NCBI GenBank assembly: GCA_016840095.1
Contig: JAEOSZ010000060.1
Span: forward strand, 1 to 31,879
Length of the DNA stretch: 31,879 nt
Direction of reading: 5' to 3'
From: Candidatus Heimdallarchaeota archaeon
GTDB lineage: Archaea > Asgardarchaeota > Heimdallarchaeia > Heimdallarchaeales > Heimdallarchaeaceae
Under the pieces are notes generated by a model. The model was given only the letters and a program-made list of their open reading frames with translations. It was not told the origin of the DNA and ran no database searches. This document shows, in pieces, positions 4,440-15,552 of this stretch (the first letter of the stretch is position 1; every line of letters starts with the position of its first letter). Position numbers and translations under genes: made by a program.

Positions 4440-5717
4440 TCAAAATCTATATTGAAAAGGTTGAATCTCTAGATCTTGCTTTTTTCTGATTTTTTTCACT
4501 TCTTTACTTATGAATCTTTTACCTTTTCCTTTTGGCATATACTTCTTAGAGATTTCATAATAATTGAGTGCATCGTTCAAATTGACATCAGATTTTCTTT
4601 TCATTCTTGCTAAGTTAAGATTTGCTACTACATTAGATGGATCTATTCTTAAACTGTGTTTCAGCAACTTCTCTGCTTCTTCATAGTTCCCTTTGTAAAA
4701 TTCTTTTATTCCTTGATTTCCTATCCTTTGTGACATCAGATTAACTGCATCAAAGCTAAAGAAGTTAGTAGATTCTTTATCTAATGTTAACACATAAGCA
4801 AACATCTTCTCATAGTTTTCTTCCTTGGTTAAGCAAATTTGTATTTTGTTCACCCAATGAGAGTAAAATGAGGATATTGAATGTATTAGTTTCAAAGGAT
4901 TCTTTCTTCTTTTAAGCCAAATTGTCATCAAAATTCTATGTAATTCAATATCCTTGAAGAAATCAATAGCTTTTGCATTAATTTTCTTAATAATTTCATC
5001 TGGAAACATACTCAAGAAGATATGTCCTAGTATTGGATTGATTGTAATAAAACTTGCACAATAGAAAACAATATTTTCGAAAGAGAAAAATTTCTCCAAA
5101 CTGTCAGGTAAGTTGTGCAAATTGTTAATGCAATTATTTTCAATAGTATCAAGAAATTGAGGATCAGGATTTTCTAGTTGAGAAAAGATTCTTGTTCTTA
5201 GAGTTGAAATGAAATGTCTTTTTTCAAAGAATTCAACATAAGCTGGCTTTTGAGCTAAAACTCTTAATCCTTTTTCACTCAAGTAACTTCTTTGTCTTTT
5301 TTTTCTGATTTTGATGTAACCTGTCCTTGTTAATGTTCTTCTAAGAAATAGATATGTAAAACCTATTTTATGTATATTTTGAAAATAATCAACTCCAAAA
5401 AGATATTTCATAGTAATTAATTGTTTTCGATAATTCTTGAATCTCAGTTTTTTTACAGATTTTGCTAAATTGGGTGTTTCAATATACAGTTTCCCTTCTG
5501 GTTTTAGTACTCTGTACCATTCTGCTAGGATATATGGGATGTGAATAATGTCAAAATGCTCTATGATATGTGATGCTTCTATAACATCCACACTGTTATC
5601 TTCATAGGGAAGTGAAGAAACATCTAGAATTTTATCAGCTATTTCTTTTTCTTCTAAATCTATGTTCACATAACCAGGTTTGTAAAAAATTCCACATCCT
5701 AGATTGAGTTTCAGCAT
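4440..5717 (-). CDS. Class I SAM-dependent methyltransferase (Methyltransf_11-like) with a C-terminal TPR repeat
   Basis: Motifs LNLGCG (motif I), VNID, LPYEDNSVD, SHIIEH and EWYRVLKPEG. The C-terminus GIKEFYKGNYEEAEKLLKHSLRIDPSNVVANLNLA is TPR-like. The start is likely the ATG at 5717 (AGAGGA upstream), just after the rSAM stop. Confidence 0.85.
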   Translation of the reverse strand: MLKLNLGCGIFYKPGYVNIDLEEKEIADKILDVSSLPYEDNSVDVIEASHIIEHFDIIHIPYILAEWYRVLKPEGKLYIETPNLAKSVKKLRFKNYRKQLITMKYLFGVDYFQNIHKIGFTYLFLRRTLTRTGYIKIRKKRQRSYLSEKGLRVLAQKPAYVEFFEKRHFISTLRTRIFSQLENPDPQFLDTIENNCINNLHNLPDSLEKFFSFENIVFYCASFITINPILGHIFLSMFPDEIIKKINAKAIDFFKDIELHRILMTIWLKRRKNPLKLIHSISSFYSHWVNKIQICLTKEENYEKMFAYVLTLDKESTNFFSFDAVNLMSQRIGNQGIKEFYKGNYEEAEKLLKHSLRIDPSNVVANLNLARMKRKSDVNLNDALNYYEISKKYMPKGKGKRFISKEVKKIRKKQDLEIQPFQYRF

Positions 5718-5727
5718 GTTATCCTCT

Positions 5728-6777
5728 CTAATTCTTTCTTTGTCTTTCTCTTCTTGGCACTTTAACTTGAAATAATTGCTCTTCAATTCTTCTTAAGCAG
5801 AAAGGTGAGTTGTGCATTTTTCCTGTTAGATGTAATGAAGTTGAATTACATCCTCCTTCACAGCTTGAACCATAAAAACAATTAATGCAATTTTCTCCTA
5901 GTTGTGATTTGGAGAAATTTCTATTATAGGAAAAGGAATTTGGATCGTTCCAGATTTGAACTAAACTCCTCTTTCTAACATTATCTTCAATTAGTTGGTT
6001 GCTTCCAAAAGTCAAGCATCCAGAAACTCCTCCATCAGAGGTTATTCCAATAGAATTTATTCCTGCAGTACATCCTTTCCATGTTTTGTTATTAGGTAAC
6101 AAATGTGAATGGTAACCATAACAATGAGCTCCTACAACTGAAATTCTCTCTGAATGTTTTGAACTCCATTCTTTAACAATAAACATAGCTGAAGCATAAT
6201 ATTCCTCCTTACTTATGACAAGTGAAGGATCGAAATTTCCAAACGGCATTCCAATTTGTAATTGCCAATTTACTTTTTTTCCTGCAAGAGTGTCTTTAAT
6301 ATCCAATAGTTCCTTGAAGTTTGTTTTACTTAGTGTAGTAATTATAGTAGTTTGAATACCTTCTGCTAAAAGCAAATCAATTGCTTCTAGTGCTACTTCA
6401 AAAGAACCTTCTCTTCTTATATAATCATGAGTTTTTTTTGTTCCATCCAGAGAAACACCAACAACATTTGGTTCTAAGATAGATAGGTCTTTGATAACAT
6501 TAGGGACTAAAATTCCATTGGTTACAAATGCTAAGTTCATTCCTAAATCCTTTATACACCAGGCTATATCATACCAATCCTCTCTTACAAATGGTTCCCC
6601 TCCCATTAAGCAAACATTTGTACAATTAAGTTCAGCTAAATCTTCACAAACTGTAAACCATTCATCTGATGACAGTTCATTTTCCCTTGCCATACCAGCA
6701 CTTGATCCACAATGTTTACATTTCATATTACAAGCTAAAGTGATCTCAAGAATAACACCATGTAAGTCGTACTTCAA
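5728..6777 (-). CDS. Radical SAM/SPASM maturase, splicease (PlpX / Y_X(10)_GDL-associated)-like
   Basis: CxxxCxxC in EITLACNMKCKHCGSSAG, plus GGEPF. SPASM cysteines: WKGCTAG-...-SGC, CINCFYGSSCEGGC (Cx2Cx5Cx3C) and NSPFC. TTG start preceded by GGTGA. The rSAM/SPASM call is firm. The subfamily call comes from remembered motif resemblance. Confidence 0.9.
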   Translation of the reverse strand: MKYDLHGVILEITLACNMKCKHCGSSAGMARENELSSDEWFTVCEDLAELNCTNVCLMGGEPFVREDWYDIAWCIKDLGMNLAFVTNGILVPNVIKDLSILEPNVVGVSLDGTKKTHDYIRREGSFEVALEAIDLLLAEGIQTTIITTLSKTNFKELLDIKDTLAGKKVNWQLQIGMPFGNFDPSLVISKEEYYASAMFIVKEWSSKHSERISVVGAHCYGYHSHLLPNNKTWKGCTAGINSIGITSDGGVSGCLTFGSNQLIEDNVRKRSLVQIWNDPNSFSYNRNFSKSQLGENCINCFYGSSCEGGCNSTSLHLTGKMHNSPFCLRRIEEQLFQVKVPRRERQRKN

Positions 6778-6783
6778 GACATC

Positions 6784-7221
6784 TCACCCATCGCAATTAT
6801 CTTTTTCAAAGACGTTGTATAATATAACTGCACTTAATGGTGTGTATACATCTTTGAATATTAGAAAGAAACTAACTATTGACAAAGTAAGATTTAGTAA
6901 TACAATAAAAGTCATTAGAATCCTATCTTTCATTAATCGCTTCCCTGTAGCAAATGATAAAGCTAAATTAGCCGAACCTATACCAAATAGAGTTAAAGTA
7001 CCCCAAGTGTAAGTTATTTGTACACCACTATGAGGATAAGTTGAATGTGCACTCTCCCAACGTCCAAATACAACACCAAGAAGTGAAGAGAGAAGATAAA
7101 AACCTGCTTGAATTATAGAAAAGATCAATCTTCTATAGAATATTTGCCTTCTTGAATATATGACTTCAGAAGAATCTATTTCTAATATCTTTGATACTTC
7201 ATCCAGCTTTTCTCTATCCAT
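6784..7221 (-). CDS. 3-TM membrane protein, paralog C; putative rSAM substrate (C-terminal ILYNV)
   Basis: Shares EKL[DE]E, RxxF, IQxG, SxLGxxFGxWE, YP and a terminal xxY[GN]V with the two upstream paralogs. Three hydrophobic segments. Confidence 0.8.
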   Translation of the reverse strand: MDREKLDEVSKILEIDSSEVIYSRRQIFYRRLIFSIIQAGFYLLSSLLGVVFGRWESAHSTYPHSGVQITYTWGTLTLFGIGSANLALSFATGKRLMKDRILMTFIVLLNLTLSIVSFFLIFKDVYTPLSAVILYNVFEKDNCDG

Positions 7222-7334
7222 TTCTTACACTTACTCATTAACACTTTCAATAGCTTGCTTTATTCACCTTGATATATGCACATTCACTATTAAAACTTTG
7301 TTAGAAATACTAATTTTGGGTTTGGTTGATTAAA

Positions 7335-7787
7335 TCATTCTTCTCTTTCATGAACATTGTACATTGGAACCATTGTCATTGTTCCTTGCTGATCTCCTAA
7401 AACAGAATGGTAGATAAGAAAGAATGAGAGGAATGATATTCCAAGATTGATTAAAGGAATAATGACTCCAAGAAGCTTATCTATTCCAAGTTTATTCTTT
7501 GTTGTAATTGTTAAGGTTAAATTCCCCCCACCTAAACCAACTAAAGTAATTGAACCCCAAAAATTGGCTCTTGATATTCCACCAAAAATACCATAAGGAT
7601 ATTCTGTTGAGCTAACCTTTTCCCAATAACCAAATGCTAGACCGAGAAGTGACGAAGAAATAAAGAATCCAGCTTGAATGAGAGGAAAGACCATTCTTCT
7701 AAGTGTTCTTTTTGTCTTTGAACCAACTATACTTGAAGATTGCATTTCAAGCAACCCTGAGACTTCTTCAAGTTTTTCTTCGTTCAT
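7335..7787 (-). CDS. 3-TM membrane protein, paralog B; putative rSAM substrate (C-terminal VPMYNV; loop YPYG)
   Basis: Same conserved blocks as its neighbours, with an ATG start. Confidence 0.82.
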   Translation of the reverse strand: MNEEKLEEVSGLLEMQSSSIVGSKTKRTLRRMVFPLIQAGFFISSSLLGLAFGYWEKVSSTEYPYGIFGGISRANFWGSITLVGLGGGNLTLTITTKNKLGIDKLLGVIIPLINLGISFLSFFLIYHSVLGDQQGTMTMVPMYNVHEREE

Positions 7788-7932
7788 TTATAACACGTCT
7801 TTGGTTTGAGATTAGAAATTTTGATTAATCATGTAAATTACTTTTTTCTTCCCATAGATACTATATTAGTTGAAATGACGTTAATAAAGATTATTGAAAA
7901 ACCTAGCAGATAATTCAATGAGAATTGGATTT

Positions 7933-8379
7933 CTACTTCATTTCTTGATTATATACTCCGTATTTAGGTACTACGCCTATCATTGATTCAGTAACTGTTT
8001 CAATATGAAAGTAAATTAAATAGAATGATATGATAGAAAAGACAGTAGTTAACAAACTAATAATTAAAATTTGTAGTTTTTCTAAAGCTATTCTTCTTTG
8101 ATTTCTTATTGAAATTATAGTATTACCAGCTCCAATTCCTAATAAAACTATAGGTGCCAAATAATAAGCTCTAGGAATAACTCCCCAAGGATAAATTGAT
8201 GGATCCTGGTTTTCCCATTTTCCAAATGCAAATCCTAAAATTGAATTTATACCAAGAATACCAATTTGAATAAAAGGAAAAATCAATCTTTTCAGAAATT
8301 TTTTCATTTTTGGTTCTATTATTTGAGAAGACTCTAATCCAACTAATTTAGCTGTTTCATCGAGTTTTTCTCTTCTCAT
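7933..8379 (-). CDS. 3-TM membrane protein, paralog A; putative rSAM substrate (C-terminal VPKYGV)
   Basis: Same conserved blocks. It carries a canonical XYG motif near the C-terminus, and a TATA-like TTTTATAAA lies about 25-30 nt upstream of the ATG. Confidence 0.82.
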   Translation of the reverse strand: MRREKLDETAKLVGLESSQIIEPKMKKFLKRLIFPFIQIGILGINSILGFAFGKWENQDPSIYPWGVIPRAYYLAPIVLLGIGAGNTIISIRNQRRIALEKLQILIISLLTTVFSIISFYLIYFHIETVTESMIGVVPKYGVYNQEMK

Positions 8380-8429: not shown

Positions 8430-11400
8430 TCACAATGCTGCTTTAAGATATTCCCATGTATATCCTTTCTTTGAGGATACAATTTCTGAAACGTCTCCTT
8501 CAACAACTAAATATCCACCGTTTCTTGAACCTCCTTCAGGTCCAAGATCAATTATTCTATCTGCTTGTTTAATTATATCCATGTTATGATCAATTATAAC
8601 AACAGTGTTTTCTTCATCTGCTAATCTATGTATAACTTTGATTAGTTTATCTATATCATAGAAGTGAAGTCCCTGAGAAGGTTCATCGAGTAAGTAGATA
8701 CTCTTATCTTGTGTTCGTCTAGATAATTCTCGACTTATCTTCAAACGTTCTGCTTCTCCTCCAGAAATGGTTGTAGTTGGTTGTCCCATTTTTAGATATC
8801 CTAAACCTACATCTACAGCTAGTTGCAGCGGTTTGCGGATTTTCTCAATATTAGAAAACAGCTCAGTTGCTTCTTCAATGGTCATTTCTAGAATGTCGGA
8901 TATTGTCTTCTTTCTATACCTTGCTGAAAGAACATTTTTCTTGTATCGCTTTCCTTTACATAGTGGACACTGTATCCAAACATCCGACAAAAATAAGAGC
9001 TCTATTCTTCTCTCTCCAAGACCTCTGCATTCCGTACATTGTCCTTTTGATGTGTTGAAACTGAAGTGACCTGAAGATAATCCTTTTGCTTTAGCTTCAG
9101 GTAAATTTCCATAAAACTGTCTAATTTCATCAAATACTGCTAAGTAAGTTGCTGGATTAGATCTTCTTGATTTACTAAGAGATGATTGATCTACAATGAT
9201 CACTTTATCTAAATTTTCAAACCCTGATATTGATTTATGTTTTCCAACTTCAGTCTTCTTACCATGAATCTGTTTCTCTAAACTCTTTTGTAGAGTGTCT
9301 ATTACTAAGGAAGACTTACCTGCGCCAGATACTCCAGTTACTGCGTTAATTACACCTTTGCCAAATTTAACATCTATGTTTTTCAGATTATTCTGTGTTG
9401 CTCCTTTGATTTCTATAGATGACTCTATTTTTCTATTCTTCTTTGGAGTCTTAATTTTCTTTGTTCCTTGAATGTAACCTGCTGTTAAGATGTCGTCTCT
9501 TTCAAGTAACTCCTCTGTCGGTCCAATAGCTACTACTTCTCCTCCTTGATCTCCTCCCAAGGGACCGAGTTCAATTAGAATATCAGAATTCTTGATTATG
9601 ATATCATCATGTTCAACAATGATAACATGATTTGCATTATCTCGTAATTTTTTCAAAGTTGTTAGAAGCTTATCAATATCCCGAGGATGGAGTCCGATTG
9701 TTGGTTCGTCAAGCACGTATGTTACACCAATCAATCCACTGCCAATCTGTGATGCAAGACGAATTCTTTGAGCTTCTCCATTAGATAGAGTACTGGAACG
9801 TCTGTTTAGCGTAAGATAACTCAATCCTACATCAACAAGATATTCAGCTCTTTTCTTAAGCTCTACAAGAATTCTTTCTGCTATCTTAGTTCTTCTTTTG
9901 TCAAGCTTCAAATTAGTTAAGAAATCTTGGAAATCATCAACAGCGTATCTTGATAAATCATTAATTGATTTATTTCCTACTGTAATAGAAAGGACTTCTG
10001 GTTTGAGTTTTTTCCCTGAGCAATCTGGACAGCTATACTCACTGTAGTATTGATTCATTTTCTCTTTGCTTTTCCTTGACCAAGATGAATCTGTTTCTCT
10101 TTCCATCCAATTATCCCAGCGTTTAATTAACCCTTCCCATTCTCCTTTTCGTGTATATTCTGCAGATCCTCTTGATCTTTCTTGAGTAACTTTGATAGGA
10201 ACTTCTACACCTTTTGATCCATAGAAAAGCCCGTCCATCTGTTGAGGTGTAAAATCTTTCATAGGTGTATCTAATGTGAAACCAAAGTGCTTCCCTACAG
10301 ATTCTAACATGGATCTTCTCCACGATCGTGGATTAGTCATTCTCTGCGCTGAGTATGGACCTATAGCTCCTTCACTAATTGACTTATCCCAATCCTTTAC
10401 TATTTTTCTAATATCAAATTGTCTAATAACTCCCAATCCAGTACATGTTTGACATGCTCCTGAGTAATGATTAAAGCTAAATAATCTGGGGTGCATTTCT
10501 TCTGCTGCTTCAAAATCGTGATTTATACATTCAGCATAAATTGAGTAGGTGTGTTTGTTACCATTAAAATAAACCTCTGTTCTTCCCTTCCCTAATCCAA
10601 CAGCTGTTTCTACTGCTTCTGCTATTCTTGAAATGTTTTCATTCTTTATGCTAATTCTATCTAATACTACTGAAAGTGAACTTGATTTCTTTGCTTTGAT
10701 CTCTTCGTCAATCTGATAGTCTTTTCCGTCAATAACTACTCTATTATATCCTTGTTTTCTCAGCTCATTAATTGTCTTCTTGATATCCCTCTCTTCACCA
10801 TTTGACACAGAAGCTGCAACTATGATATTCTTATCTTTGTAGTCTTTTAAAATCAATTTAGCTATTTCATCTACTGTTCTGGACCTCAAAACAATATTAC
10901 ACTCAGGACAGTGAGGTATGCCTATTTTTGCGTATAGTAATCGTAAATAATCATAAATTTCTGTCGTAGTTGCTACTGTTGATCTTGGATTCTTTGAAAT
11001 CGAATGCTGATCAATCGCAATTGATGGAGTTAATCCAATAATATCATCAACATCAGCTCTTTCTGCTTTTGAAAGAAACTGTCTTGCATAACTACTAAGT
11101 GATTCAACAAATCTTCTTTGTCCTTCTGCAAATAGAGTATCAATTGCTAAAGAACTCTTTCCTGAACCGCTTGGACCTGTTATAACTACAAGCTTCTCTT
11201 TTGGAATATCTAGATCAATATTCTTTAGATTGTTCTTTGAAGCACCTCTAACATAGAGATAATTTGCTGGATCTAAATCATCCTCGTGAATGCTTCTCTT
11301 TCCTTTCTCGAAAGTTTTCACTTCATTGAATAATACTTTTCTAAGAGCTTGACCTGTATAAGACAATTCATTTTCTGCTATCTCTTCTGGAGTACCAAAA

Positions 11401-14180
11401 TCAACAACATAACCACCTTGTTCAGCTCCTCCTTCTGGACCCAAATCTAGCACATAATCACATGACTTGATTACATCTAAGTTGTGTTCAATTATTAGAC
11501 AAGTATTACCATTTGAAACTAATCTTTGAAGGACTGCTAACAGCTTCTTAATGTCTGCAAAACTTAATCCTGTTGTGGCTTCATCAAGTATATACAGTGT
11601 TTGTCCAGTAGCTCTCTTAGACAGCTCTCGACTTAGTTTTATCCTCTGTCCTTCTCCCCCTGAGATTGTTGTGCTTGGTTGTCCTAATTGTATATAATCT
11701 AACCCTACATCAACAAGTGTCTGGAGTATATTCCTAATTTTTGGAATGTTCTCAAAAACTTTGATTGCTTTACTAACAGTCATGTTTAAAATATCTGCAA
11801 TGGAATACCCAGAGTACTTGATCTTTAAAGTTTCATCATCGTATCTGTTCCCTTTGCATATCTCGCATTCAACATCTACATTAGGCAGAAGTGACATTTC
11901 TATTGTATTATAACCGTGTCCTTTACAAGCTTCACATTGACCTATCTTTGTGTTGAAGCTAAACCTTGTTTTTGTATAACCTCTTATTTTAGCTGTAGGT
12001 AGTGATGCAAACAGATCTCTTATGTGATCCATCACTTTGGTATAAGTTGCAGGATTTGATCTTGTTGTTCTTCCTATAGGTGACTGATCAATTACTACAA
12101 CTTTATCGATATTTTTTACTCCTTCGATCGCTTCATACTTCCCTTCTTTTCTATTACCATTATGCAACTTGTTTACTAAGATTGGGTACAATGTATCTGC
12201 GACTAAAGAAGATTTTCCACTTCCTGATACTCCTGTTACAGCTGTAAAGGCTCCTATAGGGATATTAGCAGTGATATTTTTCAGATTGTTATGCGATGCT
12301 CCTTTCAATGTGATGAAGGTTTCACTTTCTCTTCGTACTTTAGGTATTTCTATCTCATCTAAACCAAGTAAATATCTTGCTGTTATTGATTTCTTACCAT
12401 CTTCAGCTATTAGCTTCTCTGGTTCCTTTAAGAATAGAAATTCTCCTCCTTCATCACCAGCATATGGACCTAAATCTAGGAGTAGATCAGCTGTTCTCAT
12501 TGTATCTTCATCATGTTCTACAACTAGTAAGCTATTCCCCCCATCTCTTAGAGTTTGTAACGAGTGCAGAAGTTTCTCATTATCCCTATTTGCAAGTCCG
12601 ATACTAGGTTCGTCGAGGATATAAGTTACTCCTTGAAGTTTAGCTCCAATCTGTGTGGCTAATCTGGTTCGTTGACTTTCTCCTCCACTAAGTTCGTGTG
12701 CTCCTCTATCGAGTGTGAGGTAATGTAATCCAACTTCTATTAGAAATGATAATCTATTTCTTATTTCTTTGAGTAAGGGTTTAGCTATGATATTTTCTTC
12801 TTCATTCAGCTTAACATTGTCAAAGAATTCTAGACATTTATCTATCTCAAGTTTGTTTAGTTCGGAGATATTCTTGCCTTTAAATAGAACTGCTAGACTT
12901 TCTGGTTTCAACCTTTGACCATTACAATCAGGACATGTAGATTGATCCATTAGGCTCTCTAACATCTTTCTTCTGCTTTCAGCTGAAACTCTGTGATAAG
13001 CTTCAGATGTTAATGGAATCATTCCTCTCCATCTTGCTGTCCACTCTCCCTTTCCGCTCCAATTACTAGTTTGTGTATCCCAGCTCCATTCAAAGTGATA
13101 TTCTTGTCCCCCTGTTCCCCAAAGCATGATGTCTTGTTGTTCTTTAGTAAGTTTATTCCAGGGAATATTAATATCAAATCCATGTTCCTTAGCTATAGTA
13201 TTTAGATTTCTTAGTCCTAAAGAGATGTATGTGATATGTTTCTTAGTACTGGTCATTGTAGCAATTGCACCATCAGCAATCGATAGCTCTGGATGAGCTA
13301 CATATTTCTCTGGAACAATTTGAGAAATCTTTCCAATACCTCTACACCTCTTGCATGCTCCAACAGCTGTATTGTGAGAGAAATCTCTGGGATTAAATTC
13401 ATTAACTGCTAAACCACAAGTAGGGCATACAAGTTTAGTTGAGAAGATTCTTTGATCTTTTTCACCAATTATCTTGAGTCTACCAGTTGCTAATTCTAAA
13501 GCTAAGTTTACGCTATCAAGAATGGAAGGTTCATTCTTTCGTTCACATTTATTCCTGTCAACTATAATATCAATATCATGGGCTACATATCTTTCTAAGG
13601 AAACTTCTTCATCATCTAAATTTACTTCTTTGCCATCAATGATTAATCGAACATATCCTTCTTCTTTCCATTGAGCAAGTTCTTTCCTATACTCCCCTTT
13701 TCTTTGCTCAAACATAGGAGCAACTATCTTGATTCTCTGTCCATCAAAAGAAGCAAAAATCTGTTCGATAACTTGATCTGTGGGTTGTGCTTCAATCTTA
13801 ATTTTACAAGCTGGACAATGAGGAATACCTACTCTTGCATATAGAACACGCATATAATCATAAATCTCTGTAAGAGTTCCAACAGTACTTCTAGGGTTGC
13901 GAGATATAGTCTTCTGATCAATAGAAATAGTGGGTCGTAATCCATCTATGTGTTCAACATCTGGCCTATCAAAATTTCCTATAAACTGTCTTGCATAAGC
14001 AGAAAGTGTTTCCATGTATCTTCTCTGTGCTTCTAAGTAGATTGTGTCGAAAGCTAGAGAACTCTTACCACTTCCTGAGATACCCGTTATAACCACTAGT
14101 TTATCATGCGGAATATCCACTGAAACATTGCGTAAATTATTCTCTTGTGCACCCACAACTCTAATTGAATCCTTCACCAC
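8430..14180 (-). CDS. uvrA: Excinuclease ABC subunit A, double-length (two UvrA units fused in tandem)
   Basis: Four Walker A motifs ([32 protein letters not shown]) and four signatures ([32 protein letters not shown]). It has duplicated QRRx[MV]ExLSxYARQF and NPRSTV motifs and multiple CxxC zinc modules. The start is likely the GTG at 14180 or 14177 after AGGTG. The 14318 start would overlap the divergent MFS gene. Confidence 0.95.
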
Positions 14181-14283
14181 AGCAGACACCTGAACTTGTT
14201 TCAGAAACCTATTTTCAACTCTTGATTTTAGTATATAAAGGTGGAGTTTTGCTAAAAAACTTATAAAGAAGTATGTGTTTTCA

Positions 14284-15552
14284 ATGGTTATGAATTCTGT
14301 AGGAACAACTGAATACAAAGTCTATGGATATCGTTGGATTGTTTTGCTTTTGTTTGGATTTGCTACACTGATTAACCAGATTATCTGGATAACTTTTGCT
14401 GCTATCACTCCAAAAGCTATGGACTTCTATGGAAAAACAAAAACAACTCCAATATTCATGCTCTCGTTGGTATTCATGTTAGTATACATTATTATGAATA
14501 TCCCTGCTGCATTTGCAATAGATAAATTTGGTTTAAAATGGGGTACAGGAATAGGTGTTATATTAACTGGTGTTTTTGGAATCCTAAGAGCAGTTTCAGA
14601 TCAATACCATTGGGTTTTGATTTTCCAGATTGGATGTGCTATTGGACAACCATTTCTCCTAAACTCTTTCACCAAAGTATCTGCAAATTGGTTTGGTGCT
14701 GAAGAAAAAGCTCTTGCAACAAGTTTAGGTACTGCATTTGTTCTACTAGGTGTTTTACTTGGTATGTTCATTACTCCATTTCTCGTACCAGGCACTGATT
14801 TAACTCTTATGCTTTACATCTATGGTGGTATTGCCCTCGCTATGATGGTGATTTATTTGATTTTTGTTAGAGATAAACCTCCAACACCTGCTAATGCTTA
14901 CAGTGATGTCGTAAAAACTTTCGATTTAAGAGGAACCTTCGATCTGTTCAAGAACAAAGATTTCAACATTTTACTCGTATTATTCCTATTTGGTGCAGGA
15001 ACCTTCAATGCAGTGTCAACAGTTATGGCAGATCTTTTCCATTCAATCTTTGATAAAACTCTAGGACCTTTAGTTGCAGATGATCTTTATGGTATTTTAG
15101 GAGGAATTATGATAGTTGGTGGTATTGCGGGTGCAATAATCCTCTCAACGATTTCAGATAAAATCCAGAAGAGAAAAAGGTTTCTTATAATCAATGCAAT
15201 CTCAGGAACAGTTCTGACACTAGCATTCTTCATTGTGGAGAAGTATGTAGCTAACTTTGTTATTCAATATGCGCTTCATTGCGTTATTGGTTTCGTCTTC
15301 GGTTTTCTGCTTATTTCTGCGCTACCTGTTGGACTGACTTTCGCTGCTGAAATAACTCACCCAATGCCAGAAGAAACGTCTAATGGATGGTTGATGTGGG
15401 TAGGTCAAGTTGGAGGAGTAATTTTAATAATGATCGCTATGTTTGGTATACAAAGTGATGTATTCAACTTTATAATTTATGCAGCAATTATGTTCATAAC
15501 TATAATTTTCTCATTCTTTATGAACGACTTAGATGCTTATAAGTTAAAATAA
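14284..15552 (+). CDS. MFS transporter (FLVCR/SLC49-like subfamily)
   Basis: About 12 TM segments. Motifs YKVYGYRWIVL, DKFGLKW, GQPFLLNSFTKVSANWF, PPTP, SDKIQKRK and AAEITHP. The start is the ATG at 14284 or 14290. Confidence 0.88.
   Translation: MVMNSVGTTEYKVYGYRWIVLLLFGFATLINQIIWITFAAITPKAMDFYGKTKTTPIFMLSLVFMLVYIIMNIPAAFAIDKFGLKWGTGIGVILTGVFGILRAVSDQYHWVLIFQIGCAIGQPFLLNSFTKVSANWFGAEEKALATSLGTAFVLLGVLLGMFITPFLVPGTDLTLMLYIYGGIALAMMVIYLIFVRDKPPTPANAYSDVVKTFDLRGTFDLFKNKDFNILLVLFLFGAGTFNAVSTVMADLFHSIFDKTLGPLVADDLYGILGGIMIVGGIAGAIILSTISDKIQKRKRFLIINAISGTVLTLAFFIVEKYVANFVIQYALHCVIGFVFGFLLISALPVGLTFAAEITHPMPEETSNGWLMWVGQVGGVILIMIAMFGIQSDVFNFIIYAAIMFITIIFSFFMNDLDAYKLK

Follow-up and report, generated by a model that had tools for sequence, protein, structure and literature searches.

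The window analysed here, a whole stretch of 31,879 nucleotides (contig JAEOSZ010000060.1, assembly GCA_016840095.1) from Candidatus Heimdallarchaeota archaeon, carries a minus-strand cassette in which three tandem genes for small, putatively membrane-embedded proteins (paralogs A, B and C, with 34–37% identity to A) adjoin genes for a radical S-adenosylmethionine (rSAM) enzyme with a SPASM domain and for a class I S-adenosylmethionine (SAM) methyltransferase (Table 1). The rSAM gene begins 6 nucleotides past the stop codon of paralog C, its product is the presumed maturase of the three proteins, and the source genome holds only these three copies of the candidate precursor. To our knowledge, tyramine splicing is the only ribosomal route to α-keto-β-amino acids, which are protease-blocking and bio-orthogonal handles, and it is taken to need an Xaa-Tyr-Gly site. 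Paralog A has such a site near its C terminus (KYG), B and C have MYN and LYN in its place, and Gly follows the Tyr in 70% of copies in the family. This report concerns the standing of these Tyr-Asn sites as candidate targets of the rSAM enzyme.

Table 1. Features of the precursor cassette and its flank, in window positions
Feature	Position	Strand	Basis
Precursor paralog A (148 amino acids)	7933-8379	-	Open reading frame and translation; tail ...VVPKYGVYNQEMK
Precursor paralog B (150 amino acids)	7335-7787	-	Open reading frame and translation; tail ...MVPMYNVHEREE
Precursor paralog C (145 amino acids)	6784-7221	-	Open reading frame and translation; tail ...AVILYNVFEKDNCDG
Paralog A motif K-Y-G-V-Y; PKYGV	7954-7968	-	Position counted back from stop codon
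Paralog B motif M-Y-N-V-H; PMYNV	7353-7367	-	Position counted back from stop codon
Paralog C motif L-Y-N-V-F; ILYNV	6811-6825	-	Position counted back from stop codon
Loop-1 YP of paralog A	8188-8193	-	Invariant in family alignment
Loop-1 YP of paralog B	7596-7601	-	Invariant in family alignment
Loop-1 YP of paralog C	7033-7038	-	Invariant in family alignment
Loop-1 P-Y-G-I-F of paralog B (residues 64-68)	7584-7598	-	
Radical SAM/SPASM enzyme (349 amino acids; CNMKCKHC cluster motif and Cys-rich SPASM domain)	5728-6777	-	Pfam PF04055, PF13186
Class I SAM methyltransferase with helical region and C-terminal tetratricopeptide repeats (TPR)	4440-5717 (likely ATG start; TTG reading frame to 5786)	-	Pfam Methyltransf_11, TPR
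Double UvrA (1962 amino acids; two complete UvrA units in one reading frame)	8430-14318	-	

A sequence-only reading of this DNA had named the motifs PKYGV, PMYNV and ILYNV, and translation with counting back from the stop codons reproduces both the motifs and their coordinates exactly. It also bears out the accompanying statement that the Tyr and the Val two residues after it (+2) are the same in all three window paralogs; after the motif, 4–7 more residues lead to the C terminus. The reading frames of B and C are intact and keep every other invariant residue. In paralog B the Asn codon is AAT (plus-strand positions 7356–7358 read att), which lies two base changes from any Gly codon, and this distance, together with the recurrence of the variant across many genomes, rules out a sequencing error as the source of Tyr-Asn. 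An N-glycosylation sequon is likewise ruled out, as N-V-[HFY] does not fit N-x-S/T. The nearest relative of paralog B outside the window, P0005 (46% identity), has LYGVH at the same site; on this comparison, G and N swap at the position after Tyr (+1) within one sublineage.

Paralog B also carries P-Y-G-I-F in its first loop, right behind the invariant YP. Because few homologues have it, close ones such as P0005, it is probably not the conserved site. Paralog B is thus not wholly without Tyr-Gly, which is a caveat to the Tyr-Asn reading.

A word-based protein search with paralog A returned one homologue, and a profile search over representatives was needed; among 1.8 billion representatives it found 61 members. 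An alignment of 50 members has only three invariant columns, Y63 and P64 in loop 1 and Y140, the Tyr of the tail, whose conservation is, on this alignment, far beyond chance. The motif was then tallied in 128 precursor open reading frames (ORFs) from 84 loci. Tyr is present in 126 of them, the two exceptions being mis-picked ORFs. The X before it is the most variable position of the motif (L 24, K 19, D 19, R 18, M 16, A 9, E 9), so that the K, M and L of the window are, as the sequence-only reading stated, typical X residues. At +1 the tally gives G 90, N 20, D 8, S 8, A 1 and E 1, at +2 V 111, T 7 and A 7, and at +3 Y 73 and F 45.

Tyr-Asn is the second commonest form of the site. The sequence-only reading had been staked on its conservation among homologues, and it does recur, in 20 of the 128 members and in several lineages: in the window, in the cultured Promethearchaeum syntrophicum MK-D1, in a further Loki genome and broadly across Thermoplasmatota. 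The MK-D1 cassette holds LYNVY, DYDVY and KYGVY copies together. When 49 cassettes are compared, 26 have only G at +1, 12 mix G and non-G copies under a single enzyme and 11 have no G, a state that requires at least five changes on the enzyme tree. In nine complete arrays, each flanked by the methyltransferase and rSAM genes, every copy carries N or D at +1 (L042, L063, L065, L066, L068, L069, L070, L071 and L074).

The identity of the non-G residues is itself informative, as N, D and S account for 36 of 38. It takes two base steps to reach Asn (AAY) from Gly (GGN), and among the residues a single step from Gly, R, C, W and V are absent at +1, with one occurrence each of A and E. With N, D and S, and not the mutational neighbours of Gly, making up nearly all non-G residues, this pattern of sequences argues that the restriction at +1 is selection, not decay. 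A codon path from G through S to N was considered and rejected, since Ser is encoded by AGY in three of six cases against a background of 27%, too few for support. The residues G, N and D, and S less so, are those that most readily adopt left-handed or turn conformations (textbook Ramachandran propensities), and because of this propensity we infer that the role of +1 is probably conformational rather than chemical. Tyr-Asn is thus very likely a genuine, selected form of the site, with the Tyr-Asn copies being real substrates; nine complete arrays without any Tyr-Gly copy are the reason to regard it as a selected variant, not a decoy.

Tandem arrays of 1–7 precursor copies occur in 10 of 24 genomes of the same genus, where this rSAM gene and this methyltransferase gene come next wherever the contig is long enough, and precursor, rSAM and methyltransferase genes adjoin in all complete loci of these relatives. 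The same three-part linkage is found in most of 80 loci from named genomes, and the methyltransferase accompanies the rSAM gene in nearly every locus examined. Hosts in the 80-locus scan include Heimdall-, Loki- (MK-D1 among them), Hod-, Hel-, Hermod- and Thor-archaeota among the Asgard group, along with Thermoplasmatota, a few DPANN-labelled bins, Elusimicrobia and one Chloroflexia. Gene order is precursors–rSAM–methyltransferase or rSAM–methyltransferase–precursors in Asgard hosts and methyltransferase–precursors–rSAM in Thermoplasmatota. The cassettes of the loci examined contain no conserved protease or exporter, and the window has no extra small ORF between the cassette genes. Literature searches found no paper on this archaeal or Asgard family.

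Some loci depart from the usual form. In genome G017 (L035:8535-9619) the cassette rSAM is broken up into two ORFs of 253 and 108 amino acids, and in the Chloroflexia metagenome-assembled genome (MAG; L117) it lies in three fragments; these are frameshifts or decayed copies. Five loci from bins labelled Patescibacteria, Undinarchaeota, Nanohalarchaeota and Aenigmatarchaeota (L065, L068, L071, L072 and L093) nest within the Thermoplasmatota clade of the enzyme tree, a placement that points to mis-binning or gene transfer. The double UvrA gene lies directly upstream of the cassette in the window and also neighbours it in G004, G014 and a JGI contig, and not in other lineages. For the window methyltransferase, the true start is likely the ATG at 5717 (MLKLNLGCG...) rather than that of the longer TTG reading frame, because homologues begin MKLNxGCG.

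The window enzyme belongs to the radical SAM/SPASM class by PF04055 (80.6 bits) and PF13186 (31.1 bits), both above cut-off, and has the CX3CX2C cluster motif and a Cys-rich SPASM domain. Its 414 relatives at E < 1e-20 come from Asgard and Thermoplasmatota MAGs, and the rSAM alignment has C20, C23, C219, C236, C254, C297, C300, C306, C310 and C327 invariant and C16 nearly so (at least 90%). The best NCBIfam matches of the enzyme are TIGR03913 (181 bits) and TIGR04103 (168 bits), and it reaches the cut-off of neither (591.75 and 725, respectively). These two families rank first for all four enzymes scanned (Heimdall window, Loki, Thor and Elusimicrobia), at 168–206 bits, and the third-best match follows at 132–157 bits, a gap of 26–67 bits; the Loki, Thor and Elusimicrobia relatives score 182–205 bits against TIGR04103, again relative to its cut-off of 725. 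The models for MftC and the cross-linker WgkB give 118 bits each with the window enzyme and 111–148 bits with the other three. A PDB sequence search yielded nothing beyond generic SPASM enzymes, SkfB and PqqE among them.

A tree built with IQ-TREE places the archaeal and Elusimicrobia enzymes in a clade of their own (support 94/98), apart from one that unites the Nostoc TIGR04103 enzyme with Tropicibacter, Aureibacter and TIGR03913 enzymes (97/90). Both clades fall within a larger group (100/99) that excludes MftC and TIGR04053, the branching order inside this group being left unfixed by a tree whose outgroups are few and on long branches. Reference cassettes for comparison were taken from plasmids. 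The Nostoc TIGR04103 enzyme adjoins a Nif11 precursor ending ...ALYGLPPELF, and the Burkholderia pseudomallei TIGR03913 enzyme adjoins DUF1843/DUF1842 proteins in which PYGVA, MYGVA and MYGVG immediately precede the GDL motif. On plasmid pAT1 of Aureibacter tunicatorum (L130:2150-4920), three DUF1843 peptides with LYAAG, MYAAS and PYGAG accompany an rSAM enzyme of the TIGR03913-related clade and a class I methyltransferase, which has no detectable similarity to the archaeal one. Judged by these sequences, non-Gly copies (Tyr-Ala) thus also exist inside the bacterial splicease clade.

Comparison with characterized systems reveals both kinship and distance. In the spliceotide systems (PlpX/PcpX with PlpY; the binary RhaX/RcsX/RasX; TIGR04103/IPR026482; PMC11002830, PMC11414181, PMC11626197), as in the archaeal cassette, an rSAM/SPASM enzyme adjoins one or several precursors, and the substrates have in common a variable X, an essential Tyr and then a small residue. 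The natural spliceotide cores MYGVVF and LYGL resemble the archaeal xYGV[YF]. Pfam and NCBIfam scans and the ORF list found neither a Nif11 or NHLP leader nor a PqqD-like Y protein with the window cassette; binary spliceases also lack a Y protein (PMC11414181), so that this feature is not strictly defining. Binary systems have no separate RRE protein and use a leader helix, and the archaeal family has a comparable conserved N-terminal helix. In contrast to the spliceases, however, the archaeal enzyme is shorter (349 against about 420 residues), scores far below their family cut-off and forms its own clade, and its hosts are archaea. Its putative substrates are three-helix membrane proteins without the spliceotide leaders, N, D or S replaces the Gly of Xaa-Tyr-Gly in 28% of copies, and the cassette has a linked methyltransferase-TPR protein. 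The archaeal system would resemble a binary spliceotide system in its working, yet fails membership of both curated families and of the splicease clade.

The best curated match, TIGR03913 (‘GDL motif peptide-associated radical SAM/SPASM maturase’, with DUF1843/DUF1842 proteins in Burkholderia and Azospirillum), shares with the archaeal arrays a set of tandem paralogous substrates, here with P/M-Y-G-V just upstream of the GDL motif, and its Aureibacter relative shares the class I methyltransferase and a mixture of Y-A and Y-G copies. Unlike the archaeal precursors, the TIGR03913 substrates are soluble, helical members of DUF1843 whose Tyr lies close to the domain N terminus. Paralogs A, B and C match no Pfam or NCBIfam family, DUF1843 included, and have no GDL motif, and an ESM Atlas search with paralog B gave no named relative. 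DUF1843 is treated as of unknown function (PMC10994174), PlpX belongs to the nif11-class family IPR026482 (PMC11002830), and our literature searches found no paper tying DUF1843 to splicing and none naming TIGR03913, TIGR04103 or GDL peptides in the splicease sense.

Two further types of rSAM/SPASM enzyme invite comparison. The mycofactocin maturase MftC acts on the C-terminal ...GVY of MftA, where Tyr stands beside Val, and G-V-Y also occurs within the archaeal motif. However, the window enzyme scores 118 bits against the MftC cut-off of 265, MftC lies in the outgroup of the tree, the archaeal cassette has no MftB chaperone-like gene, and the archaeal motif Tyr is not C-terminal, with 1–35 residues after the motif in the family. 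Enzymes that form three-residue cyclophanes (triceptides) act on aromatic-X-X sites, and an aromatic residue, a variable one and a conserved one with a β-carbon (Y-x-V) would fit the archaeal motif. No triceptide family is among the 25 best NCBIfam matches, and no direct test was made.

The architecture of the precursors was modelled from paralog A with AF2 and the 50-sequence alignment. The model (mean pLDDT 88) has an N-terminal helix and three long helices, the latter three being above pLDDT 90 and the motif-bearing tail of low confidence (pLDDT 59). The predicted layout is a leader-like N-terminal helix, three transmembrane (TM) helices and a disordered C-terminal tail that carries the motif. 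Mean charges of the family copies in which all three TM segments are detected (N terminus +2.8, loop 1 −0.1, loop 2 +4.1, tail +0.6) fit a topology with the N terminus inside and the C terminus outside, in which the YP loop and the Tyr tail would both face outward. Since only about 22 residues follow the last TM helix, the tail could insert only after translation ends, and a cytoplasmic enzyme could reach it before it is exposed outside.

More distant relatives extend this picture. The rSAM enzymes at 42–49% identity (Thor, Elusimicrobia, some Thermoplasmata, Hermod and Loki) are still paired with a methyltransferase, and their precursors have the same leader-like N terminus and a core Y-x-x-G-x-x-Y-[G/Y/F/A/H/S]-[S/T]-[I/V]-x-x-x-D-F, with a single TM helix in Thor and a lipoprotein-type signal (L-T-A-C) in Elusimicrobia. 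Three loci from Elusimicrobia and related bacteria (L104:7329-7661, L108:3345-3647 and L112:7045-7353) have a lipobox, L-T-A-C or V-S-S-C, behind an extended leader-like N-region and end in CGPxPGYPCGT[KR]YYTVSxxDF, with Y, F, H or A after the target Tyr. The precursors of some Thermoplasmata are short and soluble and repeat the core up to three times. At three Thermoplasmatales loci (L096:7206-7460, L097:7397-7651 and L101:4591-4848) they are soluble proteins of 84–85 amino acids with three tandem AGT-x-Y-G-T-[VI]-S-x-K-D-[VLF] units, and they adjoin two or three paralogous rSAM genes. A Helarchaeota MAG (JAHPZH010000003; L086:4475-4988) encodes soluble peptides of 46, 54 and 65 amino acids directly upstream of the rSAM gene; these lack the leader helix and any TM segment and keep only GYP[FY] and PP[KRS]YGVY, and a separate 346-amino-acid TPR protein lies upstream of the methyltransferase. 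These peptides could serve as a convenient minimal substrate. Across the superfamily, as these sequences present it, the Tyr is constant, +1 is loosely constrained, a second Tyr is always present and the membrane anchor is optional.

We infer that A, B and C are substrates of the adjacent rSAM/SPASM enzyme, that Tyr-Asn is accepted and that splicease-like excision of tyramine is the most likely reaction, a combined reading that we consider evenly poised. For the chemistry by itself, tyramine splicing stands somewhat short of even. If the reading is right, the enzyme would bind the N-terminal helix, as binary spliceases bind their leader helix (PMC11414181), and would then target the invariant Tyr of the core motif x-Y-[G/N/D/S]-V-[Y/F] in the cytoplasm, before the last TM helix inserts and the tail reaches the outside. 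The +1 residue would not be chemically essential, with selection limiting it to G, N, D and S, and the paralogs within an array (K, M and L here) would yield warheads that differ in specificity, which agrees with the inhibition of proteases demonstrated for spliceotides (PMC11626197). With neither a protease nor an exporter conserved in the cassette, the product probably stays membrane-anchored.

Several points weigh against this reading. PlpX is reported to require the Gly, and the nearest outside relative of paralog B is a Tyr-Gly protein, which would make the change to Asn fairly recent in that lineage. Published spliceases are defined by Xaa-Tyr-Gly (PMC11002830, PMC9811515). The window enzyme falls short of both family cut-offs and does not branch inside the clade of XYG-associated rSAM enzymes. 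On the predicted topology, an outward-facing tail would demand modification ahead of membrane insertion. Finally, simple splicing explains neither the second invariant Tyr (in the YP loop here and at −6 in the sister clade) nor the universally linked methyltransferase, both of which suit a two-Tyr or cross-linking chemistry as well or better.

The strongest alternative, possible though well short of even, is that the enzyme acts on the Tyr of all three tails by another Tyr-centred radical reaction, with +1 as a mere spacer, which would explain the tolerance at this position. Candidates are a C–C or C–O cross-link from the Tyr to the +2 Val (the Y-x-V cyclophane), a link to the Tyr of the YP loop and a mycofactocin-like Val-Tyr chemistry. 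Conservation of the +2 Val (111 of 128) and of an aromatic residue at +3 (118 of 128) exceeds that of +1, and the second Tyr persists as GYP even in the TM-less Helarchaeota peptides. Moreover, sister-clade +1 residues can be Y, F, H, A or S, unlike the XYG rule, the window enzyme lies outside the splicease clade, and MftC and WgkB are also among its matches. Yet the best curated matches are two xYG-associated families and not cross-linking enzymes, and X-Y-G-V is common to PlpA-type substrates (the MYGVVF splice tag, PMC10533398) and DUF1843-type substrates. The diversity of X within an array (K, M and L here; L, L, A, L, D, R and M in L048) fits splicing that turns X into a warhead, whereas a cross-link leaves it unexplained.

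A second alternative, raised by the sequence-only reading, is that processing is confined to the Tyr-Gly copy A, with paralogs B and C left unmodified as decoys, structural partners or decaying copies. The X-Y-G definition of the published spliceases (PMC11002830) and the Tyr-Gly relative of paralog B would suit it, and a Rheinheimera precursor keeps one YG site (DYG) unmodified (PMC11626197), so unprocessed motif copies exist. We nevertheless consider it improbable, as Tyr-Asn is spread across Asgard and Thermoplasmatota hosts, complete arrays consist of N and D copies only, B and C have kept their frames and all other invariant residues, and the non-G residues are N, D and S rather than the mutational neighbours of Gly. 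Least probable of all is that the small membrane proteins are not substrates but partners (membrane anchors, transport or immunity) with a Tyr motif for binding: they are unusually large and hydrophobic for precursors of ribosomally synthesized peptides that carry post-translational modifications (RiPPs), and their cassettes conserve no protease or exporter, but they form tandem arrays of 1–8 copies with a hypervariable X, share the leader-like N-terminal helix with short soluble sister-clade peptides that have a repeated core (three repeats in L096), and have Helarchaeota versions of 46–65 amino acids that keep only GYP and xYGVY, a pattern of precursor peptides.

New here are the +1 count with its codon analysis, the arrays that have only N and D, the repeated emergence of the no-G state on the enzyme tree, and the occurrence of non-Gly copies both within the bacterial splicease clade and within the sister clade. 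In reviews, confirmed spliceases are exclusively bacterial (189 bacterial genera, with 27 enzyme-substrate pairs confirmed; PMC10849128). Extending the splicing reading to the family, we tentatively propose that a sizeable, undescribed archaeal family (Asgard and Thermoplasmatota) of splicease-related rSAM enzymes may excise tyramine from the tails of membrane-anchored proteins and accept Tyr-Asn, Tyr-Asp, Tyr-Ser and Tyr-Gly; the Elusimicrobia and Thor sister clade would belong to the same wider group, and the arrays would display a panel of ketoamide warheads (K, M and L side chains) on the outer face of the membrane. If true, archaea would have their first splicing chemistry, one that would also be without precedent on integral membrane proteins and beyond the XYG rule.

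If the enzymes splice, Tyr-Asn, Tyr-Asp and Tyr-Ser sites are already natural and would widen the sequence space of splice tags. The chemistry would then operate in archaea near the eukaryotic ancestor, the cultured MK-D1 included, and would decorate membrane proteins instead of secreted peptides. Should they not splice, the family would represent a widespread Tyr-directed radical modification for which soluble test substrates are at hand, and whose natural G, N, D and S variants map its tolerance.

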